Position numbers and translations under genes: made by a program. Positions 18,339 through 46,488 of a stretch of DNA of 64,000 nt are shown here, in pieces. The stretch is taken from NCBI GenBank assembly GCA_947588655.1, contig CANPYS010000003.1, positions 11,904 to 75,903 on the forward strand, given 5' to 3'. Numbering within the stretch: the first letter of the stretch is position 1; every line of letters starts with the position of its first letter. The notes beneath the pieces are model-generated. The model was not told where the DNA came from, searched no databases, and was given only the letters and a program-made list of their open reading frames with translations. The stretch comes from an uncultured Alphaproteobacteria bacterium. GTDB taxonomy: Bacteria; Pseudomonadota; Alphaproteobacteria; RF32; CAG-239.

Positions 18339-18359
18339 AGCCTCCATAAGGACAGGAAA

Positions 18360-19129: not shown

Positions 19130-19148
19130 TTTTAGGGAGATTTTTAAC

Positions 19149-20190: not shown

Positions 20191-20205
20191 GAGTTTGAAA
20201 GGATT

Positions 20206-26575: not shown

Positions 26576-27559
26576 ATGAGCAATGATACTTTGCAACAAG
26601 TAGCTTTGAGTTATAGCAAAACGCAACAGATGCTTATTAACAGCTTTATGAAAGAATTAAAGTTTTTGGCGACTGTTCCGTTTATGCCGGCAACTCATGG
26701 CTTATTTAACCAATACGAAGAAGTGTCCGGCGTTAGCGGTGCTTCTTTTCGTGAATTTGACGCACCAAACGTCGTAATGGATATTTCAACCATTATGAAA
26801 CAAGAAAAACTTGGTGTTTTGGCTGGCGAAATGAGCGTTTCCGAGGAAAAGGCTGTTTTGATTGCCAACAATACCAAAGATGGTGGCAAAGCGGCTGAAA
26901 TCTATTTCGCCAAACGTACGCCTATTGTGCTTAATGATGCTGGTAAGGCAACAGAGCGGCACTTTATCTATGAACACCTTTATAAAAAGGCGTATCAGTA
27001 TAATAAACTTGTCGGTTCTGATACCTCTAAGCGCACAATTATTAACGCCGGCGGCTCTAATAATACCAACTACTCTATTATGGCTATTCGCCAAAATAAA
27101 GAGGAAAACTGCGGACTTGTTAGCCCTGTCGGGGAAAACAGCGACGAAGTGATGGTCATGGATTGGCTGAATGGCGGCGAGCGTCATAAACTTACAAGCG
27201 GTCCTGATGCTGGCAAAATCGGATATGAGGCGACCTGGAAAGCATTTTTAGGCTATCAGGTGGCTCGCCCTGATTGCTTAGGCGTGATTGTCAACATTGA
27301 TCCGGCGAACGATCATGATGTTACGGCGGCAATGATTGATGATTTGCTTGATAGAATTGAGGCAGATCCGTCTGATACTGCACTTGTTATGAGCCGTGGC
27401 ATGAAAACCCACTTAGGACAGTTCAAGTATGAAAAATTGCGCACTGTCTTGGCTGATGATAAGATTAAGAATGTTATCCAAGAATGGAATGATATTCCGC
27501 TTATCGGCACAAATACAATGTTACGCGGCACTGAGTCTAACTTTGATATGCCGTTCTAG
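26576..27559 (+). CDS. major capsid protein
   Basis: 327 aa. Strong RBS AGGAAAAAATAATG. Lies in the capsid position after the scaffold. Its size is consistent with podovirus HK97-fold capsid proteins. Confidence 0.6.
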   Translation: MSNDTLQQVALSYSKTQQMLINSFMKELKFLATVPFMPATHGLFNQYEEVSGVSGASFREFDAPNVVMDISTIMKQEKLGVLAGEMSVSEEKAVLIANNTKDGGKAAEIYFAKRTPIVLNDAGKATERHFIYEHLYKKAYQYNKLVGSDTSKRTIINAGGSNNTNYSIMAIRQNKEENCGLVSPVGENSDEVMVMDWLNGGERHKLTSGPDAGKIGYEATWKAFLGYQVARPDCLGVIVNIDPANDHDVTAAMIDDLLDRIEADPSDTALVMSRGMKTHLGQFKYEKLRTVLADDKIKNVIQEWNDIPLIGTNTMLRGTESNFDMPF

Positions 27560-28387: not shown

Positions 28388-28443
28388 ACTTTGAGGGGGC
28401 TTATAACCCCCTCTTTTTTAATTTATTTTTGAGGAATTTTAAA

Positions 28444-29085
28444 ATGAGTGCAACATTTACGACTGAGCTTGATGTTATCAATGCGGCAATACGCGCGCTT
28501 GGCGGTAAACATAATATTTCAGCGGATGATAAAACAAACGCGGCTGAGGAAATGAGCGCGGCATACCGCTTGACTCGCGACACTTTAATACGCTCCTATA
28601 ATTGGAATTGTTGCATTAAAAGAGATACGGCGGCTTTTTTGGAAGAAAGCGCAAGCCTTTTATACCAAGATTATAAATATATCTATCAAGTTCCTAGTGA
28701 TTGTTTGGGAATCATAATCATAAACGATAGATTTACCGGCTATTCAGGAACTGAATTAACTGAAAGATACAGCCCTTTTTATAAAATTCGCGGTAATAAA
28801 ATTTATACACGCTATAAACCGCCGCTTATCATTGAATATAAATACAGAAATGAGGATGTGACAAGCTATGATGCTTGTTTTTGCAAAGTGCTTGCACTTG
28901 ATTTGGCTATTGAATGTTGCGAGAGAATTAAACAAAGCACAACCGCTATTGAAGAATTGCGCCGTTTGCGGCAAGACGCTTTGGATGATGCTTTGCGCGC
29001 AAATGCACTTGAAATACCAGAAAGACCGAAATTAACCGGAAACTGGCTACGCGGGCGCACTATTGATGAGTGGGGAGTTGAATAA
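28444..29085 (+). CDS. putative tail adaptor / tail tubular protein A-like
   Basis: 213 aa located immediately upstream of the 760-aa protein. The assignment rests on position only. Confidence 0.3.
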   Translation: MSATFTTELDVINAAIRALGGKHNISADDKTNAAEEMSAAYRLTRDTLIRSYNWNCCIKRDTAAFLEESASLLYQDYKYIYQVPSDCLGIIIINDRFTGYSGTELTERYSPFYKIRGNKIYTRYKPPLIIEYKYRNEDVTSYDACFCKVLALDLAIECCERIKQSTTAIEELRRLRQDALDDALRANALEIPERPKLTGNWLRGRTIDEWGVE

Positions 29086-31367
29086 TGGTGCAGAAAAGAG
29101 TTTTGCGCGCATTTAATGCAGGCGAAGTAAGCCCTGATTTATATGGGCGCGATGATGTGACAAAGGTTAATAGCGGTTGTAAGGTTTGTGATAATATGTT
29201 GCTTACCATACAGGGAGCGGCTTATTTTAGGGGTGGCATGAATTATTCCGGACAAACAAAAGATAACTCTAAAGCCTTGCTTTTGCGCTTTGCTTATAAT
29301 GACAATGATGTTTATGTGTTGGAGTTTGGTAATCGTTATGTGCGCTTTTATCGCGATGGGGTATTGATGAAAGACGCCGATCAAACGCCTCTTGAGCTTG
29401 AAACGCCTTACTTATTGGCTGATTTATTTGACGCGGACGGAACACCAGCATTAAAAAGCGCACAGTCCGCTGATGTGGTGTATTTATTCCAAACACAAAA
29501 GAAATATCCGGTGCAATGCCTTGAACGTTTAAGCGATGGTCGGTTTAGTATATCCGAGGTTGATTATGCAGAAGACGGCGGTTTTGAGGACTTGAATTTG
29601 GAGCGTGATGATAGGGTTTATGCTTCGGCACAAACTGGTAGTGAAGTTATTATTACCGCAACAAAATCTATCTTTAAGCCTGGGCATATTGGAGGGCTTT
29701 TTTACATAGAACCTATTAATTTTAATGAAATCTATAATTGGGCGGAAGACAAAGATGTTAAAGCAGGTCAACGAATTGTTGCGAATTATAAAACATATCG
29801 TGCCGAGGCTGGCGGAACGACTGGATATACAACCCCTAAACATACAGAGGGAACAGCTACAGACGGCAAAATCAATTGGATATATGAAGATTGTGGTTAT
29901 GGAATTGGCAAAATAAAATCTGTTGCGGAGGATGGCAAGAGTGCAGTTGTTGATGTTTTGCTCCCTATACCGTTTGCGGCTGTTGGCGAGGCTAGAAAAA
30001 CGTGGAAGTGGAAATTTGGAAGTTGGTGTGAGGAATACGGTTACCCAACTTGTGGCTGTTTTCATCGTGAGCGGCTTTGCATGGCGCGGGGTAATCGTGT
30101 TTGGTTTAGTTGGAGTGATGACTTTGAAAATTTTGCCGAAAAAGATTTTGGCGCGATAACCTATGAAACCGGCTTTAGTTTTAATGTTTCAAGCGGTGTA
30201 ACGGTTGGATCTACAAAATGGCTAGAAAGCGCAAAAGATTTGATTTGCGGCACTGATGTCAATGTTGCGGCTATTGGCGAAAGCAATACAAGCGATTTAT
30301 TCTATGTTAGCAACTGCCGTAGCTTTGAACAAACACACGATGGTTGCCGCACGATTCAGCCGGTAAGAATTGGGCAGAAGTTTGTGTTTATTGATATTAC
30401 CGGCAAAAATGCAAATGTTCTTACATACAACGCGAACAATTATCAGTACGATAGCGACACAATACAAACATACGCCAAACATATCTGCGTTGAGGGTATT
30501 GTGGATATGGTACACATAAAAGAGCCGTTTGATGTCATTTATTGCCTGAAAACCAACGGCACACTTTCTTGTTGCCTTTATGATCCGGCACAAGAGGGCT
30601 TAGCTTGGTATCGGATAAAAACAGATGGCGAGATTGTAAGTATTGCCGCCGATAGCGCGAACCTCGCTTTGTGTATTAAGCGCAAAAGAATTATTGACGG
30701 GCAAGAAGTTGATAATTATGGCGTTGAATTTTTGCAAAATCCATTTCAAGGCTTTTTCTCTAAGACAATCGCAGATTTTAATACGTCTAAAGAATACAAG
30801 CAATATTGTATTGATAGCCTCCTGGAGGCACAAAAAGAGGCGTGCTATTTGGACGCAAGCAACGTTTATACTAGCAATAATGAATTTGATGTTATCAATC
30901 AAGGACTGGATCATTTGGCTGGGCGCACGGTTAGTATTGTTTCCGAGGGCGGTATTGAACCGGAACAAACTGTAAAACTGGTCAATGGTGCGTGGACTGT
31001 AACATTGCAACATAAAAGCAAAATAGCGATTGTTGGGTTGCCATATAAAGGGGTAATTATACCAACCTCAATGGAGGGGGATGGGGAATCAAGCGCCCGT
31101 GCGCGTAAAAAGCGCATAAACCAAATAGGCTTTAGAGTTTATAATTCCATGGGCGGCATGAGTGGCGACACGATGGATAGTTTAAAAGATGTTTTAAGCC
31201 GCTCGGGTGGCGATGTCTTGGGTAATCCTATACCGCTTTATAGCGGCGATATTGAGCTTTCGCCATTTAATGGCGATTATGAGGAGGCGGAGCAACTTAT
31301 ATTTGTTCAACCCTATCCATTTCCTTTTACATTGCAGGCAATCGTATTTGAATTTGAAATTTATTAA
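29085..31367 (+). CDS. putative tail tubular/nozzle protein (gp12-like)
   Basis: 760 aa. Size and position are the only evidence. Confidence 0.35.
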   Translation: MVQKRVLRAFNAGEVSPDLYGRDDVTKVNSGCKVCDNMLLTIQGAAYFRGGMNYSGQTKDNSKALLLRFAYNDNDVYVLEFGNRYVRFYRDGVLMKDADQTPLELETPYLLADLFDADGTPALKSAQSADVVYLFQTQKKYPVQCLERLSDGRFSISEVDYAEDGGFEDLNLERDDRVYASAQTGSEVIITATKSIFKPGHIGGLFYIEPINFNEIYNWAEDKDVKAGQRIVANYKTYRAEAGGTTGYTTPKHTEGTATDGKINWIYEDCGYGIGKIKSVAEDGKSAVVDVLLPIPFAAVGEARKTWKWKFGSWCEEYGYPTCGCFHRERLCMARGNRVWFSWSDDFENFAEKDFGAITYETGFSFNVSSGVTVGSTKWLESAKDLICGTDVNVAAIGESNTSDLFYVSNCRSFEQTHDGCRTIQPVRIGQKFVFIDITGKNANVLTYNANNYQYDSDTIQTYAKHICVEGIVDMVHIKEPFDVIYCLKTNGTLSCCLYDPAQEGLAWYRIKTDGEIVSIAADSANLALCIKRKRIIDGQEVDNYGVEFLQNPFQGFFSKTIADFNTSKEYKQYCIDSLLEAQKEACYLDASNVYTSNNEFDVINQGLDHLAGRTVSIVSEGGIEPEQTVKLVNGAWTVTLQHKSKIAIVGLPYKGVIIPTSMEGDGESSARARKKRINQIGFRVYNSMGGMSGDTMDSLKDVLSRSGGDVLGNPIPLYSGDIELSPFNGDYEEAEQLIFVQPYPFPFTLQAIVFEFEIY

Positions 31368-31379: not shown

Positions 31380-31883
31380 ATGAGTGGAGCGGCTTTTGCG
31401 GCGGCGGCAAGTTTTGGTTTGAATTTTGCAAACAGTCTAATTCAAACAAACTCACAGATAAAACAATTAAAACAGCAAGCCGCCTTAAAAAATTTAGAGG
31501 GCGACATTTATGAGTATAATGCGGCGGCGCGAGCTAATGCTGACGCTTATAATGAAGATACAGACAGGCGTGCGCGTGATTTGGAGTTATCACGGCTACG
31601 CGCAACAACAGCTCAAAGCGGCGTTAGCGGTGGCACGCTGATTGATGTGCAAATGCGCTCTGAACAAGAGGCGGAACTTGATAATATGATGGAGCGCTAT
31701 AATAATCACACTGCTTATGTGGCTACGATGTACGAAGCGCAAAAATCACGCACGGAGGCTCAACAGCTTTTAGCTAATGCAAAAAGTCTTAAAAAGAACC
31801 GTTGGCTTAATGCTTTTATAAGCGGCGCAAACGGCTCTATGGGAACTGCCGCTGCTGGCGGTTTGTTTAACGCTAAGGAGTAA
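31380..31883 (+). CDS. putative internal virion/ejection protein
   Basis: 167 aa, Ala-rich and coiled-coil. Confidence 0.35.
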   Translation: MSGAAFAAAASFGLNFANSLIQTNSQIKQLKQQAALKNLEGDIYEYNAAARANADAYNEDTDRRARDLELSRLRATTAQSGVSGGTLIDVQMRSEQEAELDNMMERYNNHTAYVATMYEAQKSRTEAQQLLANAKSLKKNRWLNAFISGANGSMGTAAAGGLFNAKE

Positions 31884-31889: not shown

Positions 31890-33632
31890 ATGGCTATGGC
31901 TTTAGAAAATACATACACAAGGCAAGTAAGGGCAAACCCTACCGCTTTAAATCCAACTCAACACAATGTGCCAAAATATGATGCAACTGCTGAATTAGCT
32001 AATAATCTTACAGAATTTGGCACGGCTGTTGCCAATGTATATGCAAAAGCTGATTATGAGGCGGCTAAGCGCGATATGAAAGAGGACTATACAAACCGCG
32101 CTTTAGAGCAAAAAAACGCCCTTAACGAGGCAAACTCTATTGCTGAACCACGCATGCGTGAGGCTTATTTTGAAAAGGCAATGGATAAAATCAATAAAAA
32201 ATATGGGCAAAATATTGATAGCCGTTTTTCACAAGAATATCAATCAATGACGAGTTTAGACGACAAAGAGGCTCTGCTTAATTTACGTTTTAAGCAGACG
32301 CAAGATTTACAGCGCGAAAACAGACTGCGTGCTACGCGTGAACGCGATAAGGCGGCTGAACAGGCGGCAAGCGCCAATCCTGCTTATGCGGCTGAAATTG
32401 ATAACCGCGTGCGTTCTGATCTTGATGGTATGCTGAAAGACGGTTCACTTAGCCAATATGAGGTTGATATTGCTTGGGAAGATTACACGAAAAAGAAAAC
32501 AACGGCAACCATTAATAATTTTCTTGACAGCTCATCTGAAGATTTGAGCGATGATCAGGTTAATACGGCACTTGATGTTATCACAGCAAGCGTAAGCGAT
32601 GAAAACACGCGCAAACAGCTCAAAGATTTTGCGAAAGCTAAAATACAAGGGCTAAAACGGCAAAAAGAATATTTAGATACCTTTAATCAACTTCATAGCG
32701 AGTATGATCTATTAAATCAAAGCGCAACAAATAATCTAAGTATTTCAGAAATTAACCGCCGTATGCCGCAAGGTGCAAGTAAGGAGTATAAAAGCCTTAT
32801 TGAATCATTAAATGGTTATGGCAAGCTTATCCAACCGGACGAAAGCGAAAAGGTTATGATAAAAGAAAGCCTTTATGATGAAATAGCGCAAGTGACAAGT
32901 AATGCCGAGGCAACGCCGCAAGACTACGCAAAACTTCAAAATAAGATATATGGGGCATTATCCGTTAAGGCTATAAGCGTTGCAGAGGGCAAGAAAGTTT
33001 TAGATCAGATAATTATGCCATTAAATGATAGTTGGGGGCGACAAATTGACAAACTTTCAACCGACAATCTTGGCTTATTTACTGGCGATTTAGGAATGAG
33101 TGAAGTGAAAGCTTATTTGGAAAACAACGGTTGGCTGAAAAACACCAAGCAAATTGCTAAAAAAAGCCAAAAAGGCAAAAGCTTGTCAAAGGAATTAAAG
33201 GCAGATGCAACGAATAACGCGCGATTAAGCATTAAAGCTTATCAGTTATATAATAATAACCTTTTAAAAGCGGCACAAGCCAACGGTTTTAATAGTATTG
33301 CTGATGTTATTGCGCTTGATGACAATTCACAAAAGCGCGCTTTATTTAAAAATGCGCAAGATACCACAATAAGACAACTGGCAAATGATAGATTTAGCTT
33401 TTTATCAGGCTTGCCCGAAGATCAACAACCTAACAAGGTACTTGATGGCGGCGTACTTGTTGGAAATACAAACAATATCAACAATGCACGACTCGGCACG
33501 CCTGTTACTGATACGCGTTATAAAGGCACTGCGTATGACGCGGAAAGCGGCAAATATGGTTTAGTGCGTGCTGATGGTACGATTGAAGAAGTGAGTTATG
33601 AAAGATATAAACAATTTGGAGGGCAAAAATAA
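31890..33632 (+). CDS. putative internal virion/ejection protein
   Basis: 580-aa helical protein immediately upstream of the giant protein. Confidence 0.4.
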   Translation: MAMALENTYTRQVRANPTALNPTQHNVPKYDATAELANNLTEFGTAVANVYAKADYEAAKRDMKEDYTNRALEQKNALNEANSIAEPRMREAYFEKAMDKINKKYGQNIDSRFSQEYQSMTSLDDKEALLNLRFKQTQDLQRENRLRATRERDKAAEQAASANPAYAAEIDNRVRSDLDGMLKDGSLSQYEVDIAWEDYTKKKTTATINNFLDSSSEDLSDDQVNTALDVITASVSDENTRKQLKDFAKAKIQGLKRQKEYLDTFNQLHSEYDLLNQSATNNLSISEINRRMPQGASKEYKSLIESLNGYGKLIQPDESEKVMIKESLYDEIAQVTSNAEATPQDYAKLQNKIYGALSVKAISVAEGKKVLDQIIMPLNDSWGRQIDKLSTDNLGLFTGDLGMSEVKAYLENNGWLKNTKQIAKKSQKGKSLSKELKADATNNARLSIKAYQLYNNNLLKAAQANGFNSIADVIALDDNSQKRALFKNAQDTTIRQLANDRFSFLSGLPEDQQPNKVLDGGVLVGNTNNINNARLGTPVTDTRYKGTAYDAESGKYGLVRADGTIEEVSYERYKQFGGQK

Positions 33633-36600
33633 TGGCTTGGGAAATTGAAAATACGGTTGCAACGGATAACGAAGAAAACAAAAATATCCAACCGCAATGG
33701 GAAATTGAAGACGTGCAACCTATAACGCAATCCGTTATGGATGCCGAAACTAAGCAAATGTATAATGTGCCTCTCGGAATGGACGGAACAGACGCTAAAT
33801 TTGCGATTGATACGCAACACGGTGGCAAGGATAAAGGCTCGTTTTTGGGCAAGGTTTGGACTGGAATTGATACTCTTGGATCGCATATTGAAAGAGGATT
33901 CCAAGACTTTGACCGCGCCGTTGTTGAGCATGCGGGGCAATTAGTGGATTCGCTTGTTTTAGATAAAGGCTTAAGATACCAAAAGCGTCTAAAGTTGGTT
34001 GAAGATTGGGAAAATGGCGATTGGAGCTATTTTGGCAATCGCGAGCTTACCGATGAAGAAAAACAAGGTGTTATTAGCCGCCAAAAGGAACAAATTGCCT
34101 ATATTCAAAACTTGCGCGAGCGGACACAAAAGTTTTTCAATAAAGGCGCTCAAATTATGCGCCCTGATGAAAAGATGAATAATGTTGATAAATTTCTTGT
34201 TGCGGCAAGTAGTGGCGTTATTAGCCTTGGTGAAGCGGCGGCTGTGTTTATGGCAACGAAAAACCCCGTACTAGCGGCTGCGACAATAGGAACATCATTC
34301 GCCTCTTTAAAAGATACTGAATATTTTGATAAAGCTATTGCCGCCGGCGAAAGCGCAAATGACGCGAGTACTGACGCGACCGTTGCCGGTGCAATAGAGG
34401 GCGGGCTTGAATTTGTTGGCGATAGGCTTTTGTTTGGCATTGCTAAGTTTAAACCTATTCAAGAGCTAGGAAACAAGGTTATTCAATCGTCTATTACCAA
34501 AACATTACAAAGCAAAATCGGGCGTTCGGCTCTCGGAAAGATTGCCTCAAGACACCCTCAAAGCATATTTGGCGCGGCTGTTAAGGGCGGCTTTACAGAG
34601 GGCGGCGAGGAATTTATGCAAGAGGGCGCTGGTATGCTTTGGGAAAATTATACTGGTGTTTCTAGTTATGGCATGGATGAAATTTTAAGCCAAAGTTTAT
34701 TTGCCTTTGCGGCAGGCTCTATTCCGGGCGCTGGTATGGGCGGTATAGGAACAAGTATATATAATCAGAAGATTACAAAAGATAACAATTCTATTAAGAA
34801 TATCTTGAAAGAAAACACACCTGAATTAACCGATGAAGAATTGCAAGTTGTTGCAGATAATGTGCAAGAGGCTTTGTTGCAACAAGGTGCGGCGTATGAT
34901 GATCAAATTACAAATTTATTGCGCAAGGAATCGGAAATTGATGTTATGCCGGACGGTTTAACCGCTGAAAGCCTTACTGCCGACACGCGTAATATGCTCA
35001 AAGAAAAATATGGCATGAGCGATGAGGATATTAACAAAACCATTGACATTGCCGCCAATTATATTGACGCGCGCAATGGCTTTAACGAAACGTATAACGA
35101 ATATTTTGATAAAATGGACACCGCTGGTTATGATCGGAGCGTGGCGGATAATGCCGCACGCGTTTTGGCGGCTCGCGCTGTTGCTATTGCAAGGGCGGAG
35201 GGTGTTAGCACAGAAGAAGTGCGCAAGCGTTGGAATTTGAACCTGACACGGCAAACCTACGAGGATTTTAAAAACGGCGTGCCGGTTGCGGATAATTATG
35301 CACAACGCCAACAGCAAATAAACGATATTATGGGCGTTGTGCCTGATAATTGGACGGATGAACAGAAAAAGGCGTTGCGTAAAGGTATTGCCGCCCGCGC
35401 ACGCTACGGCGATCTTGACGCGGCTAATTTTAACGCCGAAACGGCTAAACAATGGTTTGAAAGCAAGGGAGCTGACGAATCCATTAAAGACATCAATAAA
35501 CGCGTTCAAACCATTATGGGCGTTTTGAATTTTAAGGAAGAATTGGAAACAGTTAAAAAATCAAAGCGCATCAATCCGCAAGATATTAATCCGTTTGAGG
35601 CGTTGGTTAATGATAAACTATACAATAAGATTGCCAAAATTGATAAGGAAAACAGGGGCGACAGCCTGATTACGTTTATTGTTAAGCGCGGTGGCTTAAA
35701 AGACGTTGGTGGCGAGTTGAAAGCAAAGGACGCTCAAAAGCAACGTGTTGGGCTTATCAACAACAAAAGCGGGAACGATTTTGACGATATGGCTTTGATT
35801 GCTTGGGAACACGGGTATTTTCCGGCGAAGACAGAAAGACCAACCATACAAGATTTGCTTGATGCGATTGATGATGAGCTTTTTGGGAAAAAGCGCTACC
35901 AATATCAAGATGGCATCAGTCAATCAATGACCGAATATGTTGACAGCCTTGCTGAACAAATGGATATGCTCGGTGTGGATTATGCCGGTATGAGCGCCGA
36001 GGAGGCAGAGGCGGCTTATTATAAAGCGGCAGAAGAATATAAGAAAAACGCGCGGCAATATGAATCTGATTATGGCGATAATGGCGTAAATTTTGATGAT
36101 GATCTTCCGCTGTTTCAAGAATCGGCAGAACTTGCTGATAAAATAAGCAAAATTGACGCTGAACGGCTTGCTTTTGAGCGAAAGGATATTAACCCCGAAC
36201 TCAAAGGTAGGGAAAACGAAAAAGTTAAAGCGGTTAAAATTAACCGCTTTTTTTCTGATCGTGCGGAAAGCAAAGATATAAGCCTTGATGATATTATCGC
36301 GGCGATTGATACTAAAGTTAATAAAAATGCTAAAGGTACCCGCATTTTAAAAAATAGTCATACTGGCGAAGTTGTTACCTTGTCAGGGCGGGCGATTGGT
36401 AAAATGTTTAATACAACAAGAGATAGACTTGATAATCAAAATATTGGTGGCGTTCTCGGTAAGGAATGTATTGCTAATATTGCTGATATTTTTGACAGTG
36501 CCATGCTTATTAAAACCACAAATGACGAAAGACACGATACAAACAATAAAATTCTGCGTTACGCAAATGCTGTTGAATCCGATTGCGAAAATTTTATTGT

Positions 36601-39600
36601 TAAAATAACCGTAAAAGAAATGGCTAATAACCGCAAAGAGCTTACGGATATTGAAATTGAAAACAACAATGGCAGAGATTTAGCCGCCTATGATTTGAAA
36701 GTTGGCAGAAAAAATACCGTTGAGGGTAATTCCTCTACAGATAAATCCGTAGCCAGCCTCAACGGTAATGCTATTATTATAAACGATTTAATAGAGTTTG
36801 TCAATACCTATACGACAAAAACTATAAACATTAATGGAAAAGAACGCATGACAACCAATAGCGAAGGCAACCGCATTGCTAAAACCGAAGAGGGCTTGCG
36901 CGCTTTTTATGAATGGTTTGGGGATAGCAAGGTGGTTGATGATCAGGGTAGACCGTCGGTTGTTTATCACGGAACAAGAGCAAAGTTTTCAACTTTTGAC
37001 AAGGGAAAGAAGGGCGAAGCATCATCAGTATCAAGGGTTGGTTTTTGGTTTTCCCCATCAGAGGAGTTTGGAAGAAATTTTGCGGAAGATGCGTGGTATG
37101 GCGAAGAAGATGTTATTGTTATGCCGGTTTATCTTAATCTGAAAAATCCAAAAATTTATAAACCAGGACAAGCAACAGAAACAGAGCAAAAAAAGGCTAG
37201 GAAAGCATTTGACAAGGCACAAAATAAATTAGAAGAAGCAGTTAAAGAAGAAAAAAGAATATTAGAAAAAGAGGGACTTTATGCATCGTGGAAATACAAA
37301 GATAAGGTTAATATTGATAAAATAAGAGAAGATTTCGAATATGCACTATCAGAGCTACACGCAACGCAAAAAAAAGATTCGTACGAAAAATTTAAAATGG
37401 ATATATATCGTGTAGGCGGACAAAAACCAACTGATGCAACAGTCGGTGGGCTTGGTATGGCTCTTGACGATTATAATGCACCTGAAAAATATGCAGATAT
37501 GCTAAAAGAGCAAGGATATGACGGAATTATTATTGAAGATACAGAATATGACGCTGGAAATATAACAAACGCTGAAACTAACACTCAATATGTAATTTTT
37601 GAAAGCAATCAGGCAAAATCCACAGAAAACATAGGAACATATAGCAGGACAAATAATAATATCTATTATCAGTCAGCATTTGCGGCTTCACGCGTTGACT
37701 ATGAAGCACCGAGCCTTGAAGCAATAGGTACAGGAACAGACGCACAGACGCACGGTTATGGACTTTATTACGCTCTTAATAGAAACATTGCAGAAAATTA
37801 TAGAGAGGGCTTTATTCAAGATGAGTATAATGAAGAAGTCCGAGAAAAAATAAAAGAATTAGGAAAAGAAGAAGCTATAAAATACTTTAAACAAAAAGCA
37901 GAAGAAGCAAAAATAAATAAATCTTTGTATAAAGGGGATATTCAATATCAAATAAAAGAACAGGAAGAAAAAAAATATAATATTATGTCCGATATGGCAA
38001 AAACAGGTGCAGAGGGGCAAATTCACGAGGTTGACATACCCGAAAATCCGTACTTGCTTGACGAACAGCTACCATTTGAAGAACAATCTGATTATGTAAA
38101 AGAAAGGCTTGAAAGAATAAATAAAGAAAGTGAAGCAAAAGGCTTTTTAGATACTTTGCGCTCTTATGACAGAACAATAGACGGCTATGATATTTATTAT
38201 AAAATATCACAATACGTTAATGGCGATAAAGAAGCTTCCGCTTTGCTTGAAAGGTACGGTATTAAAGGAATAACATATTTTGGAAAAAAGGACGGCAAGT
38301 GCTTTGTTATCTTCAATCCGGCAGACATTAGAGTTATCCAAAAATTTTATCAAGAAACTCTTGGAAATAATACACCTCCGCGCGGTGCGTTTGTTGAGCG
38401 CGGTGATGAAAACATTATTTATGCTTTTGAGGGGGCTGACGCTTCAACAGTTATTCATGAACTTGGACACTTCTTTTTGCGCGATATGCAAAAATTTTCC
38501 GATAATGAAAAGACGGCTGAACAGTTAGCTGAAGTTTATAAATATCTTGGGGCTGAAAACGGCGAGCTGACACGCGAACAAGAAGAAAAATTTGCTGATA
38601 CCTTTGAAGTCTATTTGCTTGATGGACGCGCGCCTAATCAGGTATTAAGAGGCGTGTTTGCTCGTTTCAAAAAATGGATCAGTAGCCTATGGTATGAGGT
38701 TAAGCGTCTTAAAGGTATTAACCTCACAAATGAAGTGCGCACAACCTTTGATGATATGCTTGGCGGTAAAGGGCTTGATTTTGCTATGCGAGCAAGCACG
38801 CTTAAAATGGGGCAAATGCTTGAACGCGGCAATATATCGCAATGGCAAATAAACCGCGCTATGCAAATGCTTTATGATGGCAAAATGAGTAAGGCAGACT
38901 TGCAAAACCTTATTCAAAAGCTCCGCAACGGTATGAAAAATAAAGAGTTTGTTGAGGCGCTTAAAGAATTTGAAAATAAACCTGCAAAAGGCAACAAAGA
39001 ATTGCTTACCGAATGGGATTACACTGTTTTGCGTAACCAGTTAGACGGGTTGAACTTTAATCGTGACAATGTCAAGACGCGTATTGAAAAATTGCTTAAA
39101 TGGAGCGAGCCGCGTACTAGTGGCGGCAAGCTCGTTGGGCGTTTTCCGAACAAACAGCTTAATGATGCTTTTGCTCGCTATCGTGAATTGGTAACAATGA
39201 ATAAAGACGAGGCAAGGCAAAAACTGCAAGAGAACGTTGAACTCATTGAAGATCAAATGAGGTCTGGTGGCGATGTTGATATTGAACAGCTGATTTTTGA
39301 AAATCGCTTGCTTTCTTATAACCTCAACAAGATTAGCAATAGTGAATTGCTAAAATTATATGACGGCTTAGCTGAAAGCTATAATATAGGGCGTTTGACT
39401 GATAAAATTACTGGCGATGCCAAGCGTGAGCGCAAAAAACAAATGATTGAGCGAGCAAAGGCAGTCTTAACCAACTACGGCGCAATCAATCCGAACGTTG
39501 AAAGATCTGAAATCAAGAAAAGGTTAGCGCGCTTTGGTTTAAGTCAACAAAGTTGGGGTGGCTTGCTTGACACACTTTCAATGAATGACACACGTTCGCA

Positions 39601-41515
39601 AACCGGAAAAAGCGCCTTAAGCCAAGATTTGGATATGTTTGACGCTGAACAAAAAAAATATGCGGGCATTGCCGCTGATAGCGATAGTATAAGCGAAAAG
39701 CTTGAAAAGGCTTTAAGCGGCACAAAGAACAACGCGCAAAGCGTGACACATTACATCAATACGGAGCTTGATAAAAAGGTTGTTATTGAATGGAGTGGCT
39801 TAACCAACCCCAAAGAACGGAATCCAAAATACCAAAAATGGCAACAATTCAAGCGTACATTTACAAAAGATCAGCTCATTGATATTTATATGAAGTCTTT
39901 AGATGATGATACGCGCAATATTATGATTAATGATCCGGTTAATCAATACAACGAGGCTTTTTTGAGGCAGGTAAAAGACGAATTGACCACCGATGATTTG
40001 GCGGTTGCTGATGCTATTTTTGCCTTTTACAACGAAAACTATACGCGGTTTAACGCGTTCTATGAAGAGCATTTTGGCATGAGCTTGCCTAAGTCAAAAT
40101 ATTATACACCGCGTGCAATGAGCGTTGACGGCGTAAGTATTGACGACAAAACCACTCACGGCTATGCTAGCTTTAGCGGTGCAAAAAAACGTGTGGCGGT
40201 GGCTGGTACTGGCGTGATCAATATTCAAGGCGCGTTTAGAGCATTAAACAAATATATCAACCAACAAAACCATTATATGGGCTATATGGATAAGCTAACG
40301 GATATTAACGCCGTGCTAGCGAACAAAGAAATTAAAAACACCATTAACTCTTTGTTCGGCGCTGAAATGAACAAACGTATACAATACGAGATCAACAATC
40401 TCGCAAACAATGGAAACGATAAAGTTGACTCTTGGGGCAAGTTTTGGAATAAATTGCGTGCAAATTATGCAAAATCTGTGCTTGCGGCTAAACCTAGCTT
40501 GACAATAAAACAGCTTACCTCTTTTCCTGCATATTGGGAAAATATGGAAACGATAGATTTTGTTACTGGTGTTGCTGACTTTTTTGCACACCCTAAAGAG
40601 GCAATACAAATATTAGGTAGCACAACCTTAATGAAAACACGCGGAACGGATATTATCCGAGATTTTGACCAAATAAGCAAAAGCGATTTGTTCTCAAAAA
40701 TGAAAAAAGCCAAAGGCAAAATAAAATGGAATGATTTGCTCATGTTTAATATTAAATTCGGCGATAGGGGCGCAATTTATATGGGCGGTTGGGCGTTATA
40801 TAAAGCGGAGCTTAATAAAAACCTAAAAGCCGGCATGAGTGAGCAAGAGGCAAAGGCGCAAGCGTTGGCTACGTTTGAGCGTGTGACTGATGAAACGCAA
40901 CAATCGGGGCGGTTAAGCCAACAAAGCTTTATGCAAAGCAATTCCGCTCTACGTGCGTTTACAATGTTTACAAGCTCTCAAAACCAGTATTTGCGCAAGG
41001 AAATTAACGCAATTCGTGGCTTGGTAACCGGCAGAATGAGTAAGACAAAGGCGGCTAAAACTATATTTATTTATCACGTTTTGTTGCCCGTGTTCTTCCA
41101 AGTCGTAAGCGATGGCTTTAGATGGGATAAAGATAATGACATACGCGCCGCCGTTCTTGGTTCGCTTAATGGTTGGTTTATCTTGAATAAGGTTCTTGAA
41201 AATGTTTATAATTGGCTTACAGACAATGGCAATATGTTCAAAACCCGCATGTCTGTCCGTGATTTAGTGCCGTTTTGGGGTTCAGTTGAGGATTTGAAAA
41301 ACGATGTGCTTAAATTTGCCGATGACGAAATGGAGCTTGAAGATATGCTTGATGTCATTAAACCGCTTGGCGAAGTAACCGGTTTACCGCTAAAATATGC
41401 CAAAGACGTTATTGAAAACGCTGGCGAATATGCAGATGATGGGGAATATTTTAAGGAGGGCTTGTTATGGCTTGGTTGGAGTCCATATTCTTTAAGAGAT
41501 TTGGGCGACGAGTGA
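33632..41515 (+). CDS. giant polyvalent internal-virion (ejection) protein, 2627 aa
   Basis: A single uninterrupted ORF. It contains an HExxH zincin motif (VIHELGHFF, nt about 38455-38469) and an H-G-T/aromatic/E region (VVYHGTRAKFSTFD...GFWFS...IIIEDTEYD, nt about 36950-37560) that resembles H-Y-E ADP-ribosyltransferases. Gly-rich hydrophobic segments lie near the N-terminus. No Walker A or SLT motif is present. Confidence 0.7.
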   Translation: MAWEIENTVATDNEENKNIQPQWEIEDVQPITQSVMDAETKQMYNVPLGMDGTDAKFAIDTQHGGKDKGSFLGKVWTGIDTLGSHIERGFQDFDRAVVEHAGQLVDSLVLDKGLRYQKRLKLVEDWENGDWSYFGNRELTDEEKQGVISRQKEQIAYIQNLRERTQKFFNKGAQIMRPDEKMNNVDKFLVAASSGVISLGEAAAVFMATKNPVLAAATIGTSFASLKDTEYFDKAIAAGESANDASTDATVAGAIEGGLEFVGDRLLFGIAKFKPIQELGNKVIQSSITKTLQSKIGRSALGKIASRHPQSIFGAAVKGGFTEGGEEFMQEGAGMLWENYTGVSSYGMDEILSQSLFAFAAGSIPGAGMGGIGTSIYNQKITKDNNSIKNILKENTPELTDEELQVVADNVQEALLQQGAAYDDQITNLLRKESEIDVMPDGLTAESLTADTRNMLKEKYGMSDEDINKTIDIAANYIDARNGFNETYNEYFDKMDTAGYDRSVADNAARVLAARAVAIARAEGVSTEEVRKRWNLNLTRQTYEDFKNGVPVADNYAQRQQQINDIMGVVPDNWTDEQKKALRKGIAARARYGDLDAANFNAETAKQWFESKGADESIKDINKRVQTIMGVLNFKEELETVKKSKRINPQDINPFEALVNDKLYNKIAKIDKENRGDSLITFIVKRGGLKDVGGELKAKDAQKQRVGLINNKSGNDFDDMALIAWEHGYFPAKTERPTIQDLLDAIDDELFGKKRYQYQDGISQSMTEYVDSLAEQMDMLGVDYAGMSAEEAEAAYYKAAEEYKKNARQYESDYGDNGVNFDDDLPLFQESAELADKISKIDAERLAFERKDINPELKGRENEKVKAVKINRFFSDRAESKDISLDDIIAAIDTKVNKNAKGTRILKNSHTGEVVTLSGRAIGKMFNTTRDRLDNQNIGGVLGKECIANIADIFDSAMLIKTTNDERHDTNNKILRYANAVESDCENFIVKITVKEMANNRKELTDIEIENNNGRDLAAYDLKVGRKNTVEGNSSTDKSVASLNGNAIIINDLIEFVNTYTTKTININGKERMTTNSEGNRIAKTEEGLRAFYEWFGDSKVVDDQGRPSVVYHGTRAKFSTFDKGKKGEASSVSRVGFWFSPSEEFGRNFAEDAWYGEEDVIVMPVYLNLKNPKIYKPGQATETEQKKARKAFDKAQNKLEEAVKEEKRILEKEGLYASWKYKDKVNIDKIREDFEYALSELHATQKKDSYEKFKMDIYRVGGQKPTDATVGGLGMALDDYNAPEKYADMLKEQGYDGIIIEDTEYDAGNITNAETNTQYVIFESNQAKSTENIGTYSRTNNNIYYQSAFAASRVDYEAPSLEAIGTGTDAQTHGYGLYYALNRNIAENYREGFIQDEYNEEVREKIKELGKEEAIKYFKQKAEEAKINKSLYKGDIQYQIKEQEEKKYNIMSDMAKTGAEGQIHEVDIPENPYLLDEQLPFEEQSDYVKERLERINKESEAKGFLDTLRSYDRTIDGYDIYYKISQYVNGDKEASALLERYGIKGITYFGKKDGKCFVIFNPADIRVIQKFYQETLGNNTPPRGAFVERGDENIIYAFEGADASTVIHELGHFFLRDMQKFSDNEKTAEQLAEVYKYLGAENGELTREQEEKFADTFEVYLLDGRAPNQVLRGVFARFKKWISSLWYEVKRLKGINLTNEVRTTFDDMLGGKGLDFAMRASTLKMGQMLERGNISQWQINRAMQMLYDGKMSKADLQNLIQKLRNGMKNKEFVEALKEFENKPAKGNKELLTEWDYTVLRNQLDGLNFNRDNVKTRIEKLLKWSEPRTSGGKLVGRFPNKQLNDAFARYRELVTMNKDEARQKLQENVELIEDQMRSGGDVDIEQLIFENRLLSYNLNKISNSELLKLYDGLAESYNIGRLTDKITGDAKRERKKQMIERAKAVLTNYGAINPNVERSEIKKRLARFGLSQQSWGGLLDTLSMNDTRSQTGKSALSQDLDMFDAEQKKYAGIAADSDSISEKLEKALSGTKNNAQSVTHYINTELDKKVVIEWSGLTNPKERNPKYQKWQQFKRTFTKDQLIDIYMKSLDDDTRNIMINDPVNQYNEAFLRQVKDELTTDDLAVADAIFAFYNENYTRFNAFYEEHFGMSLPKSKYYTPRAMSVDGVSIDDKTTHGYASFSGAKKRVAVAGTGVINIQGAFRALNKYINQQNHYMGYMDKLTDINAVLANKEIKNTINSLFGAEMNKRIQYEINNLANNGNDKVDSWGKFWNKLRANYAKSVLAAKPSLTIKQLTSFPAYWENMETIDFVTGVADFFAHPKEAIQILGSTTLMKTRGTDIIRDFDQISKSDLFSKMKKAKGKIKWNDLLMFNIKFGDRGAIYMGGWALYKAELNKNLKAGMSEQEAKAQALATFERVTDETQQSGRLSQQSFMQSNSALRAFTMFTSSQNQYLRKEINAIRGLVTGRMSKTKAAKTIFIYHVLLPVFFQVVSDGFRWDKDNDIRAAVLGSLNGWFILNKVLENVYNWLTDNGNMFKTRMSVRDLVPFWGSVEDLKNDVLKFADDEMELEDMLDVIKPLGEVTGLPLKYAKDVIENAGEYADDGEYFKEGLLWLGWSPYSLRDLGDE

Positions 41516-42262: not shown

Positions 42263-44956
42263 ATGGACTGCTTTATTTTTAAGAAAGGTAAAACCATGAC
42301 AATTACTGCAAGTATGCCCGCCAAGGCTGTCTATCTAGGCGATGGCGTTACTGTTAATTTTCCAGTTCCGTTTATTTATTTTGAAAATTTGGACGGAACA
42401 AAACAAATTAAAGTCGTTCTCGCTGATGAAAATGGCGAAAACGAGGTTGTACAGGAAGAGAATATAAATTTTACCATTACAGCGTCTGGTCAAATTAACG
42501 GTACGCTGACAATGAACACACCTCCTCCTGCTAATTATATTTTGACAATTCTATATGATATACCGATTGAACAGCTGACGGACTGGAAAGAGTTCGGTAG
42601 ATTGCCTAGCGAGAGTATTGAAAAGGCTGTTGATAAATTGACGGCTATTATTAAACAAATTTATGAAGTATTAGATCGGTGTGTTAAGGTTACAATCAGT
42701 GGCAAGCAAACGCCTGAAGAGCTTCTTGCGACTGTTTATGATAAATTGGACAGCGCAACAGAGGTTGCAAAACAGGCTTCAAGCGCCGCCGAAAAAGCAA
42801 CCGCCGCCGCGGATAACGCGACAAATGCGGCGGCTAATGCCGTGCAAGCGGCGGAAACGGCTGTGCAAGATATTGAAAACGCTGTTGCCGGCGCTAAAGA
42901 CGATATTGCCGAAACCCTCCAACAGTCTGAGGCAAGCATTCAAGAAACGATTGCGTCGGCTATTGAGGATGTTAAAGGCGCGGCGACTGCCGCCGCACAA
43001 GAAATTGTGGATAATGCCGCCGAAAGCGCCACGGAAACGGCAAAAAGCAACCTTAATGCGTATGTTGATGAAACGGTTGAGCCGTCCTTGCAGAAATACG
43101 TTGATGCCGCCGTCGCTTCCGCCGAGGAGGCTCATAGTTACGAAAGCTTGGCAGAACAGAAGATTGAGGAGTTTAAGACATTATACGAAACTTCAACGTC
43201 TGAATTTGAAACGCTATACAGCACTTCAACATCTGAATTTGATACAAACGCGCAGGCTCAAACATCTGATTTTAACGCCAATGCCGCAGAGAAGCAAGCG
43301 GCGGTTGATAAATCAGCCGAGGCGGCGGCAAATAGCGCCACAGCCGCTGAAAAATCCAAACAGGACGCGGCGGCGAAAGCAGATGCCGCTGCGACATCAG
43401 AAACAAACGCAAAAAAAAGCGAACTGCTAGCCGCCGCGCTTGCAGAACGCGTGAGAAGTGAGGGAATTCCAATGAGCATTATTGAACACAAAAGAATTGA
43501 GAAGTCGGGGAACACCGTTAAATTGTACTGGCAAGATCCGCGCAACACGATTATTGACGGATATACACTTGCGAGTTGGAAGTCAACGACAATCGTTAAG
43601 AAACAAGGGACATACCCCGAAGACGTTGACGATGGCGAGATTGTAGCCATTGTAACAGAACGTAATAGATATTTAGACACGCCGCTTGAAGACACACAAG
43701 AGGATGCCGCAAATTGGTATTATCGGGCGTTTCCGTTGTCTGTTAATGGTGTGTATTGCCTTGACAAGCGCAACTGCTTTGGCGTTGTGTTATATGGTTA
43801 CCGCATTAACGAGATTGATCAAGTGCCGTCTACGCGCGTGGAATATTTGCCGTATTGCGATAATTATTTCTATGATCCGTGTTCTATGGATCATATTGCT
43901 GATACGTTCAGTTGGGGAAGTTGGGAAAGGGCTTTCTTCGTTCCAAAGCCGTGCGCTTTGAAATACAACGGCGAAGTTGATTATTATCTTGATGTGCATG
44001 ATTTTACTAAAAAGGCAGACGGTAGTGCTTCGGATGTGAGTAGCTTTGACTATGGCGGAAACTTCATGTGTGAATTTCCCAAGATTTTCGTTAAGTTTTG
44101 GCGCGAAAACAACTATATTTATGTCCTTGTATCAAATACAAAGCTTGATGATGGCTTTGAGTGTTACGCATGCAAGAAATCCGACGGAAGCTATGCTGAA
44201 CATTTTTATTTGCCAATGTTTGAGGGTACAAAAGATACCGATAACCGTCTACGTTCAATCGCCACAAATACAGTGCCAACGGCTTCAACGAACGCCGAAA
44301 CCGAAGCAACCTATGCAATGGCAAACGGTACGGGTTGGAACACTACATTGTGGGCAGATGAAATGTTGATGATCTTATTATTCCCGCTGTTATTCAAGTC
44401 CACAGATAGCCAAGTTGCGTTGGGTTATGGCGCAAGCGGCTCATCTAGTGGCTTAACGTGTAGAAACGATGCGGCGTTGGCAAAAGGCATGATGTATGGC
44501 ACGGCAAGCGGCAATGCCGCCGGCATGACGTATCTCGGATTGCATAACTGGTGGGCGCACCGGTGGCGCCGATGCAACGGCTTAATGAATAATAAAGGAA
44601 CGATTTACGTTAAAATGACACCGTCAACGATTGACGGCAGTTCTACGGACGGTTTTAACCGCACTGGCGAGGGATATATCAACACAGGGCATTTGATGCC
44701 CGCTTGCGAAAACTCGTACTACAGGCGTTATTTACCGGTCGGAAAATATGGCTTAATGCCGCAGACTGTTTCAGGCAGTAGCACGACGTATTATTGCGAT
44801 GCCGGTTGGGCGAACAACGGTCAACTTGATCAGCTTCTCCTGGGCGGCTCTGTTAATAACGGCACGTCCGGTGGGGTGTTTTGCTTTCACGTTAACGGCG
44901 CACCTTCGATCACGAATTGGAGCTTCGGCGCTTCGCCCTCTTATCATCCCCTTTAA
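42263..44956 (+). CDS. tail fiber protein with C-terminal C-type-lectin-fold DGR variable region
   Basis: 897 aa. The middle is an Ala-rich coiled-coil. The C-terminus GWANNGQLDQLLLGGSVNNGTSGGVFCFHVNGAPSITNWSFGASP is CLec/FGE-like. An alternative start at 42296 (MTITAS) has a better RBS. Confidence 0.75.
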   Translation: MDCFIFKKGKTMTITASMPAKAVYLGDGVTVNFPVPFIYFENLDGTKQIKVVLADENGENEVVQEENINFTITASGQINGTLTMNTPPPANYILTILYDIPIEQLTDWKEFGRLPSESIEKAVDKLTAIIKQIYEVLDRCVKVTISGKQTPEELLATVYDKLDSATEVAKQASSAAEKATAAADNATNAAANAVQAAETAVQDIENAVAGAKDDIAETLQQSEASIQETIASAIEDVKGAATAAAQEIVDNAAESATETAKSNLNAYVDETVEPSLQKYVDAAVASAEEAHSYESLAEQKIEEFKTLYETSTSEFETLYSTSTSEFDTNAQAQTSDFNANAAEKQAAVDKSAEAAANSATAAEKSKQDAAAKADAAATSETNAKKSELLAAALAERVRSEGIPMSIIEHKRIEKSGNTVKLYWQDPRNTIIDGYTLASWKSTTIVKKQGTYPEDVDDGEIVAIVTERNRYLDTPLEDTQEDAANWYYRAFPLSVNGVYCLDKRNCFGVVLYGYRINEIDQVPSTRVEYLPYCDNYFYDPCSMDHIADTFSWGSWERAFFVPKPCALKYNGEVDYYLDVHDFTKKADGSASDVSSFDYGGNFMCEFPKIFVKFWRENNYIYVLVSNTKLDDGFECYACKKSDGSYAEHFYLPMFEGTKDTDNRLRSIATNTVPTASTNAETEATYAMANGTGWNTTLWADEMLMILLFPLLFKSTDSQVALGYGASGSSSGLTCRNDAALAKGMMYGTASGNAAGMTYLGLHNWWAHRWRRCNGLMNNKGTIYVKMTPSTIDGSSTDGFNRTGEGYINTGHLMPACENSYYRRYLPVGKYGLMPQTVSGSSTTYYCDAGWANNGQLDQLLLGGSVNNGTSGGVFCFHVNGAPSITNWSFGASPSYHPL
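44833..44937 (+). repeat. DGR variable repeat (VR)
   Basis: A 105-bp match to 45107-45211 with 8 mismatches, every one at a position that is A in the downstream copy. Confidence 0.9.
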
Positions 44957-45106: not shown

Positions 45107-45211
45107 GCTTCTCCTGGGCGGCTCTGTTAATAACGGCACGTCCGGTGGGGTGTTTTGCTTTAACGTTAACAACGCACCTACGAACACGAATTGGAACAAC
45201 GGCGCTTCGCC
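45107..45211 (+). repeat. DGR template repeat (TR)
   Basis: Noncoding copy of VR. It contains in-register AAC codons (TTT AAC GTT AAC AAC ... AAC ACG AAT TGG AAC AAC). Confidence 0.9.
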
Positions 45212-45336: not shown

Positions 45337-46488
45337 ATGAAGACATACAACGGATTGTTTGATAAAATTGTTGACGAAGACAATATTCAGAAAGCCATCT
45401 TAAAGGCTTCGCTCGGCAAACGAAAGAAAGCAAGCGTCCGGCGTACGCTGTGTAATATCTCTGAAATAGCGCACAAATTGAGCCAAGAGCTTAAAACTGA
45501 TACTTGGCGACCGGTTGAAGCACACCAAACAACGCAGATTAATGACGGTGTTGAGCTTAAAAAACGGTATATTGTTTGCCCGAATTTTGCGAGTGAACAA
45601 TGCGTGCATCACGCAATCATGAATATATGCGAGCCGCTGTTTCGCAAGAAGTTTTACCAGTACTCATGCGGAAGTGTCAAAGGGCATGGTGGCGATCAGG
45701 CTAAAAAGTACATTGAAAAGATATTGAAAAAATATCCGGCTAAAACAAAATATGTTGCAAAGCTTGATATTAAGAAATTCTTTGCCAATGCCAAGCCGAG
45801 TTTTATATTTCATGAAGTCAGGCGCACTATTCGCGATCGGCGGGTACTTAGGCTGTTTGCGTTGATTTTGCGCGCAAATAAACAAATTGTAGATGGCAAG
45901 GTAATAAAAGGCGGCATTCCAATTGGGTTTTATACTAGTCCGATATTTGCCAATATCTTACTCAATCCCCTTGATCACTACATTAAAGAAGTACTTGGCA
46001 TTGAATATTATGTGCGGTACATGGACGATATAATAATGTTTAGCCCGAATCGCCGCAAGCTCAAACGTGCTTGCCTATCAATCAGGGAATGGTTAGAGAC
46101 TCGCAAGCTTCAGCTCAAACCGATATGGCAGGTTCACCGGATGACAAGTGTTAATTTTATTGGGTATCAATTTAAGAAGAGTGGTCTTATTCGTATTCGC
46201 GATAGGATATTCTTAAAATCCGTTCGCTGTGTGCGCCGTGTGGCGCGCAAAAAGGCGGAAAGGCGTATGACAATACATGATTGTCTGCGCATCTTAAGCT
46301 ATATGGGGCGTTTCAAGAACGCCCAAACATATAGCGCATTTCGGCGGTATATTTCCCCGCTGATTAATATACGCGAAATGCGCAAGCGTGTTTCGCGGCA
46401 CTTCAAAAAACTGGCAAAAACGCAAAAAGAAAGGATGGGTAACAAATATGATATGGCGACATGCAGAGGGCAACCAGCGACCGCGTGA
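45337..46488 (+). CDS. DGR reverse transcriptase
   Basis: 383 aa with RT motifs IPIGFYTSPIFANILLNPLD and YVRYMDDIIMF (YxDD). The N-terminal LFDKIVDEDNIQKAILKASLGKRKK is typical of DGR RTs. Confidence 0.9.
   Translation: MKTYNGLFDKIVDEDNIQKAILKASLGKRKKASVRRTLCNISEIAHKLSQELKTDTWRPVEAHQTTQINDGVELKKRYIVCPNFASEQCVHHAIMNICEPLFRKKFYQYSCGSVKGHGGDQAKKYIEKILKKYPAKTKYVAKLDIKKFFANAKPSFIFHEVRRTIRDRRVLRLFALILRANKQIVDGKVIKGGIPIGFYTSPIFANILLNPLDHYIKEVLGIEYYVRYMDDIIMFSPNRRKLKRACLSIREWLETRKLQLKPIWQVHRMTSVNFIGYQFKKSGLIRIRDRIFLKSVRCVRRVARKKAERRMTIHDCLRILSYMGRFKNAQTYSAFRRYISPLINIREMRKRVSRHFKKLAKTQKERMGNKYDMATCRGQPATA

Follow-up and report, generated by a model that had tools for sequence, protein, structure and literature searches.

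The window analyzed in this study is a 64,000-nt stretch of DNA from an uncultured alphaproteobacterium (GenBank assembly GCA_947588655.1, contig CANPYS010000003.1, positions 11,904 to 75,903), and it contains a T7-like podovirus prophage of a gut alphaproteobacterium, about 40 kb long and integrated at tRNA-Ala. One giant open reading frame (ORF) of this prophage encodes a protein of 2627 aa, which is most probably a phage-type polyvalent protein, packaged via its conserved ends, injected together with the DNA and carrying enzyme modules. Two Pfam families that were defined for polyvalent proteins, ART-PolyVal and LPD3 (Iyer et al. 2017, PMC5512222), were matched above their cut-offs, and a conserved HExxH module and a context of virion genes were found in addition. 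Two or more domains of disparate predicted activity are thus present in one prophage polypeptide, and the assignment to polyvalent proteins made in a preliminary description of this DNA is supported. The theme is less recent than that description had it, since the class was described already in 2017 (PMC5512222).

The giant ORF runs over 7.9 kb without interruption, as first described. Its start ATG shares one base with the TAA stop codon of the preceding 580-aa ORF (TAATG), and GGAGGG is present 10 nt 5' of the ATG; because of this overlap and this motif, translational coupling to the ORF in the gp15 slot is suggested. The HELGH motif noticed earlier is the sole HExxH of the protein and begins at aa 1609 (nt 38456), with FADTFEVYLLDG at aa 1654. 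The motifs VVYHGT, GFWFS and GIIIEDTEYD of the ADP-ribosyltransferase (ART) block were located at aa 1110 (nt 36959), aa 1137 and aa 1298, respectively, which places the block about 500 aa upstream of HExxH rather than about 400 aa. These motifs are not due to chance: with the Pfam model of ART-PolyVal, the ART block reaches 72.5 bits where the cut-off is 31.2, and none of the HExxH residues varies among 31 non-redundant modules. The reported lack of Walker A, transglycosylase and polymerase motifs also stood: the motif search found no Walker A, and neither the whole protein nor its segments gave a Pfam match to a lysozyme, transglycosylase or polymerase. The Gly-rich stretch near the N-terminus was recovered as a Gly/Ala-rich hydrophobic stretch at aa 188-206 with a mean hydropathy of 1.72. 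No NCBIfam match was obtained for the giant ORF or either neighbour, and sequence searches of PDB with the whole protein, a full-length profile of 20 sequences, the HExxH profile and the ART profile returned no meaningful match. The features of the giant protein and of its surroundings are listed in Table 1.

Table 1. Positions of the giant ORF, its modules and junctions, and the neighbouring prophage genes in the window.
Feature	Position (nt)	Strand	Remarks
Large terminase	21262-22755		
Portal protein (Head-tail_con)	23878-25596		
Capsid protein	26576-27559		
Tail tubular protein A	28429-29085		
Tail tubular protein B	29085-31367		
gp14-like internal virion protein	31380..31883	+	phrog_418, E 2.4e-10; PF24072 (T7_gp14) sub-threshold in the window
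580-aa ORF, gp15 position	31890..33632	+	no PHROG or Pfam match
Giant ORF, 2627 aa, probable polyvalent internal (gp16-slot) protein	33632..41515	+	no interruption
N-terminal conserved core, aa 1-545	33632..35266	+	Gly/Ala-rich hydrophobic stretches
Module aa 600-826	35429..36109	+	shared with giant proteins that differ in other respects (P0081-P0102), identity about 40%
Junction LFQ, aa 827-829	36110..36118	+	breakpoint where relatives diverge
LPD3 (PF18798), aa 891-1001	36302..36634	+	E 9.4e-11, 42.4 bits, cut-off 27
ART-PolyVal (PF18760), aa 1103-1333	36938..37630	+	E 7.7e-20, 72.5 bits, cut-off 31.2
Junction YYQ, aa 1345-1347	37664..37672	+	NIYYQ tail typical of ART-PolyVal copies; breakpoint
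Second, degenerate ART-like module, aa 1348-1571	37673..38344	+	hhalign to the ART-PolyVal alignment
Junction FYQ, aa 1572-1574	38345..38353	+	Q1574 kept in at least 90% of 20 family members
HExxH module, predicted zincin-like metallopeptidase, aa 1575-1735	38354..38836	+	HELGH at aa 1609-1613, nt 38456-38470
C-terminal conserved scaffold, aa 1736-2627	38837..41512	+	all-alpha
Widespread C-terminal domain, last ~570 aa (aa 2060-2627)	39809..41512	+	
Hydrophobic helix, aa 2474-2492	41051..41107	+	
Tail fibre, gp17 position	42263..44956	+	diversified by a diversity-generating retroelement (DGR)
Tyrosine integrase	48290-49564	-	

Predicted enzyme modules of the giant protein

Domain-level searches with hidden Markov models (HMMs), which had been proposed for the segments aa 600-1000 and 1050-1300, matched LPD3 and ART-PolyVal in them, and the ART-PolyVal match spans positions 1-135 of the 140 in the profile. 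The family was described as H-Y-D type of the Tox-ART-HYD2 clade, with His, Tyr and Asp in strands 1, 2 and 5, respectively (PMC5512222), and the corresponding residues were read from alignments of 24-26 diverse ART-PolyVal copies. The position of the catalytic His is H1113 (nt 36968-36970) in the motif YHG[TS], whose column is invariant in 24 copies. The strand-2 "Tyr" position in the motif G-x-Y-F-[TS] is occupied by W1138 (nt 37043-37045), in a column that is mostly aromatic among 26 copies (mainly Y, F or W; also H and a few non-aromatic residues). The conserved acid is D1297 (nt 37520-37522) in YDG, with its column at least 90% conserved, and E1302 in GIIIED is not conserved among the aligned copies. 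The ART-like module of the preliminary description is therefore retained on the strength of its Pfam match, and the "H-Y-E" class proposed for it is replaced by H-Y-D, with D1297 instead of E1302 as the acid and W1138 in the place of the "Y". This correction of the catalytic residues to H1113, W1138 and D1297 is an addition to the first reading.

A further module without Pfam match was found directly downstream, at aa 1348-1571. It begins with YQSAFAASRVDY...IGTGTDAQTHGYGLYYA and ends with GIKGITYFG..GKCFVIFNPADIRVIQKFYQ. The first hint of a relationship between the two modules came from MAFFT, which stretched ART fragments over both of them, and the combined model of ART and middle module was dropped. 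In a local hhalign comparison, the profile of aa 1348-1571 aligned to the ART-PolyVal alignment with a probability of 96% and an E value of 4.3e-9 over 197 columns, pairing SAFAAS with VYHGT, GLYYA with GFWFS, and GIKGIT with GYDGII. The profile alignment thus identifies aa 1348-1571 as a divergent paralogue with a predicted ART fold. Where ART-PolyVal has its catalytic His, Ala is found in the query and in its close relatives (SAFAAS), more distant copies retain the His (FHGSPH, YHGTPH), and Lys stands at the Asp position in all copies (GIKGITY). It is unlikely that this module uses the same catalytic residues as ART-PolyVal.

The HExxH module at aa 1575-1735 is common to 107 of 120 homologues in BLAST comparison. 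Nine residues, S1605, H1609, E1610, H1613, E1652, Y1661, P1668, F1676 and W1682, are invariant across 31 non-redundant copies that are 25-75% identical to the query, and E1652 (nt 38585-38587) is the candidate third zinc ligand. The AlphaFold2 (AF2) model of the module has a mean predicted local distance difference test score (pLDDT) of 76.6, with the core above 90, and consists of a beta-hairpin, a long helix with HExxH (residues 50-67 of the model) and later helices, including one (94-110) that bears E1652 as E98. The earlier proposal to inspect this segment by structure prediction thus gave HExxH in a long helix and E1652 in a later one. With a spacing of 43 residues between His and Glu, the modelled module follows the predicted pattern of a gluzincin.

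Zincins are the sole recurrent Pfam families in the 31 copies, all of them below threshold: ATLF in 11 of 31 (best E 0.0012), Peptidase_M78 likewise in 11 (best E 0.009), SprT-like and M32 in two each, and M66 in one. Curated zincin HMMs gave no significant match to the module, only sub-threshold ones. Its matches in BFVD are other phage polyvalent proteins, and an HExxH region of N4 virion RNA polymerase (vRNAP) was linked to anthrax lethal factor by Iyer et al. (PMC5512222). The homology evidence for the zincin identity is weak but consistent. The zincin proposed in the preliminary description is kept as a prediction on the basis of the invariant H-E-H and E1652, the recurrent sub-threshold HMMs and the literature, and it found no counterpart when the model was compared with PDB by Foldseek.

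Conserved ends and exchange of the middle

Comparison of 120 homologues reveals that relatives of the giant protein keep its two ends, aa 1 to about 545 and about 1572 to 2627, and differ in the middle; the closest relatives also keep aa 546-857 and 1340-1571. The kept ends (aa 1-857, 1340/1572-2627) are 75-91% identical among relatives. The alternative middles detected by Pfam scan contain PBECR5, PBECR2, LPD1, or LPD23 with a second HExxH, and all of them belong to the vocabulary of polyvalent proteins; PBECR2/5 are RNases. The shortest members (1750-1980 aa) consist of the N-terminal core, the HExxH module and the C-terminal part, and more distant homologues, which have just single modules in common with the query, bear ddrB-ParB, LPD22 and LPD38 from the same published vocabulary. 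Mosaicism of orthologous polyvalent proteins was earlier reported for Helicobacter prophages. In three close relatives (P0037, P0041 and P0104), the LPD3-ART stretch is replaced by LPD23 followed by a HEIQH peptidase, so that each has two different HExxH modules; the HEIQH peptidase is weakly similar to DUF6782, a "putative metallopeptidase".

The N-terminal core is kept in all 77 close family members. It has no match in Pfam, among PHROGs with a function or in PDB, tblastn with it returned no isolated phage, and its weak matches to the N-termini of more distant polyvalent proteins are collinear. The module at aa 600-826 has no Pfam match.

The C-terminal domain is far more widespread. A profile of the last 568 aa matched 10,699 cluster representatives (50% identity) at E≤1e-3 and 2,479 at E≤1e-30. 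In the 150 best matches listed, the domain is at the C-terminal end or close to it, and most of these proteins have 1100-3650 aa; the small number of shorter ones resemble fragments or copies of the domain that stand alone. The N-terminal core was found in only 12 of the top 142 representatives, ART-PolyVal in 17, the HExxH module in 20 and the second ART-like module in four. Because so few of them share the upstream modules, the C-terminal domain is what the representatives have in common and all that precedes it varies, which fits a variable cargo on a C-terminal domain that serves as packaging or ejection anchor. The C-terminal ~570 aa of the query are not covered by Pfam and NCBIfam, and no solved relative was found. 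LPD38 was tried as the identity of this domain and rejected, as hhalign against the tail of P0100 gave nothing. Weak tblastn matches of the domain were obtained in two isolated podoviruses, Pseudomonas phage AF and Tenacibaculum phage Gundel_1. The former encodes the 2213-aa AF_016 after internal virion proteins A and B and a structural lysozyme, and the protein of the latter (2482 aa) is annotated as "structural protein".

Three junctions of the query, LFQ, YYQ and FYQ, sit at the three breakpoints of the mosaic, and modules of relatives end in similar aromatic-Gln motifs. The query has four Phi-[FY]-Q tripeptides against 2.9 expected, and the FYQ junction falls in a low-confidence stretch of the AF2 model. 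The motif is enriched in the 120 homologues (562 vs 308 expected) and in the independent set of 142 representatives (459 vs 295). In the latter set, the control motifs Phi[FY]N (537 vs 355) and Q[FY]Phi (415 vs 294) are equally enriched and Phi[FY]Q has no fixed distance upstream of HExxH. Aromatic-Gln junctions were therefore rejected as a specific cleavage signature, and the junction idea persists, with low probability, only as a local coincidence of three junctions with three breakpoints. Self-cleavage of polyvalent proteins by their peptidases was proposed by Iyer et al., who named no sites (PMC5512222).

In N4 vRNAP, the MPTase-like region is needed for encapsidation and the protein is packaged uncut (Iyer et al., PMC5512222). 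The giant protein might similarly be an uncut capsid cargo outside the ejection conduit, as N4 vRNAP or crAss-like cargo is, with HExxH acting in encapsidation or cleaving host proteins. The parity of the aromatic-Gln motif with its controls in the independent set agrees with such a cargo, and hhalign pairs HELVH of N4 with HELGH of the query, at a level that is not significant (E 0.012, probability 3.6%). We regard this alternative as improbable: among the genes that separate the tail fibre from the gp14-like gene, none encodes a second large internal protein that might serve as gp16. It differs from an injected polyvalent protein only in the role of the peptidase and in channel formation, and nothing here separates the two.

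The prophage and its virion gene order

Genes adjacent to the giant ORF were assigned by PHROG and Pfam scans. From the gp14-like gene to the tail fibre, they are arranged in the window like gp14-gp15-gp16-gp17 of T7. The order of capsid, Bbp16, nozzle/tubular B, T7_gp14, an ORF of 575-696 aa, giant ORF and tail fibre recurs in three relatives, namely a 76%-identical prophage (L001), a short member of 1908 aa (L020) and a distant member of 2378 aa (L022). The T7_gp14 family (PF24072) matches the gp14-like genes of relatives at E≤1e-5. Gene order in the window and in the relatives thus bears out the podoviral internal core or ejection position that had been described at first. Homology to T7 gp14, gp15 and gp16 was tried with profiles of the N-terminal part, aa 600-835, the C-terminal part, the gp14-like protein and the gp15-slot protein, and was rejected (hhalign at most 1.2%). 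In the short-form relative L020/L021, a RelB / ParE-YafQ toxin-antitoxin pair is inserted at 6651-7210 between the gp14-like and the gp15-slot genes.

The gp16 slot raises the question of a purely structural role, in which the giant protein would be an ejectosome or core protein that builds a trans-envelope conduit as an analogue of gp16 and keeps its ART-like and HExxH modules as non-catalytic relics. The position is common to the relatives, the large conserved ends are all-alpha with hydrophobic helices, the second ART-like module is clearly degenerate and the HExxH module has no fold match, all of which agree with this explanation. Relics would not be expected to conserve H1113, D1297, the H/E/H of HExxH and E1652 across copies that are 25-35% identical, however, and the free exchange of the middle for nuclease and other effector modules argues for a cargo and not a rod. 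With no sequence similarity to T7 gp16 either, a purely structural protein is considered unlikely.

It is highly improbable that the giant ORF encodes a prophage toxin or lysogenic-conversion factor, expressed by the lysogen and secreted instead of being a virion component. The gene is embedded in the late structural operon, co-oriented with it and apparently coupled to it, and its position is kept in phage-sized contigs of ~40 kb. No secretion-system domain or signal was found in Pfam scans. These observations speak against a toxin, even though polymorphic toxins often contain ART and peptidase domains (PMC5512222) and the element is integrated as a prophage.

The last 45 nt of the tRNA-Ala gene (9342-9417), at 9373-9417, recur at 49726-49770, just past the integrase, and because the repeat is present at both ends the prophage is bounded to about 40.4 kb. 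Its flanks encode LepA, H+-pyrophosphatase and GyrB. The segment 9402-9496, made up of the 3' end of the tRNA and the next ~80 nt, recurs in blocks at 49982-50076, which look like a second att-like copy or the remnant of another integration. The left arm of the prophage (9802-20600) contains mostly small ORFs on the minus strand, with a strongly negative GC skew at 10-14 kb, and is presumably the early or lysogeny region. An ankyrin-repeat protein (Ank_2, E 1.4e-20; 6534-7283, minus strand) and an AAA_14/DUF4143 ATPase (2783-3985) are encoded in the host flank; ankyrin-repeat proteins are uncommon in bacteria.

A DGR is aimed at the tail fibre, with the variable repeat at 44833-44937, the template repeat at 45107-45211 and the reverse transcriptase at 45337-46488. 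The tail-fibre ORF carries a 105-nt repeat at its 3' end, of which a second copy precedes the reverse transcriptase (RVT_1, E 1.4e-21), and all 11 mismatches, including two just past the repeat, are A in the copy on the reverse transcriptase side and a base other than A in the fibre. In the related prophage L001, an Mtd_N protein and a reverse transcriptase are encoded at the equivalent place.

Relatives of the giant protein were found in metagenome-assembled genomes. Gut Alphaproteobacteria of human, mouse and roe deer are the source of the close ones, and Lentisphaeria and Victivallaceae that of the more distant ones.

Proposed delivery, comparison with known systems and significance

What the analysis shows is the domain composition, the residue conservation, the gene order and the mosaicism described above, and each of the rival explanations is less consistent with residue conservation, module exchange and operon context than an injected polyvalent protein. 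A model of injected polyvalent proteins has been published (PMC5512222, PMC9503650). Following it, the giant protein would be synthesized late, together with the gp14-like and gp15-slot proteins, and incorporated inside the capsid through its conserved ends, of which the C-terminal ~570-aa domain is the most plausible packaging or ejection anchor, and it would exit the virion together with the DNA. Between the ends it would carry the exchangeable modules, namely the unassigned module, LPD3, ART-PolyVal with H1113, W1138 and D1297 intact, and the degenerate ART-like module, followed by the HExxH metallopeptidase-like module. By analogy with T4 Alt, the intact ART may ADP-ribosylate a host macromolecule early in infection, and the peptidase-like module may act either on the polyprotein itself, dividing it into functional pieces, or on host proteins.

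Several points weigh against this interpretation. The ART fold of aa 1103-1333 is predicted from the Pfam family assignment, and the family profile has no sequence match in PDB. W1138 takes the place of the strand-2 Tyr, and a helical insert of ~100 aa (about aa 1185-1290), shared by only some relatives, interrupts the domain. The Pfam model MPTase-PolyVal does not match the giant protein, and no solved structure like the AF2 model of the HExxH module was found by Foldseek in PDB (best E 0.8). The AF2 model of the C-terminal part is poor (pLDDT 57), and its Foldseek comparison to PDB was meaningless, with no E value below 0.8. A transglycosylase, as in T7 gp16, is absent, and hhalign against gp16 with the N-terminal, middle and C-terminal profiles gave probabilities of at most 0.6%. 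Homology to N4 vRNAP gp50 was likewise rejected, since the HExxH alignment is non-significant and the N- and C-terminal profiles gave nothing. Packaging and injection, as well as both enzyme activities and their targets, are inferred.

A more elaborate scheme is doubtful. The gp16 slot would be an effector chassis, in which the C-terminal domain steers packaging and ejection, the modules upstream of it are swapped in frame at LFQ 829, YYQ 1347 and FYQ 1574, and HExxH cuts at these junctions too. If it were true, post-injection cuts would release an active ART and a degenerate ART-like partner.

The giant protein shares with the polyvalent proteins of Iyer et al. (2017, J Bacteriol 199:e00245-17) the giant single polypeptide, the unrelated enzyme modules, the context of virion genes and the mosaicism. 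It differs from them in an HExxH module outside Pfam MPTase-PolyVal, an extra ART-like module and scaffolds that are not covered by Pfam. Compared with T7 gp16 and its ejectosome, it occupies the same slot, preceded by a gp14-like gene and a mid-sized ORF and followed by the tail fibre, and is the largest protein of its gene module, but it is twice as long, lacks the N-terminal lytic transglycosylase and has enzymatic effector modules instead. T4 Alt provides the concept of an ART that is made late, packed into the head, coinjected with the DNA and acts on host proteins (PMC5512222). Alt is a protein of its own, of ~75 kDa and from the R-S-E (Alt/VIP2) clade, whereas the ART of the query is of H-Y-D type within a polyprotein of 295 kDa. 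N4 gp50 and the ART-bearing vRNAPs of N4-like phages, such as Roseovarius Plymouth podovirus 1, are giant capsid-internal proteins, as the query is predicted to be, with HExxH near the C-terminal part, and ART-PolyVal was prototyped on an N4-like vRNAP (PMC5512222); an RNA polymerase module is absent from the query.

Proteins of this kind, together with their probable mode of delivery and their evolution as mosaics, have thus been described already, and the giant ORF extends the description of 2017 and does not depart from it. The additions are the degenerate ART-like module, the corrected residues, the C-terminal family, the gp16 slot in prophages of gut Alphaproteobacteria and the coincidence of junctions and breakpoints. 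H1113, D1297, E1610 and E1652 are concrete targets for mutation, and three candidate processing sites are available. No biochemically characterized ART-PolyVal enzyme or polyvalent-protein peptidase was found in the searchable literature, and a tractable member would help to test the prediction of injection and self-processing made in 2017. The unannotated C-terminal family would be a useful marker for such cargo proteins in metagenomes. For the phages themselves, the finding would mean that a temperate T7-like phage of gut Alphaproteobacteria loads its largest internal-protein slot with exchangeable enzymes.

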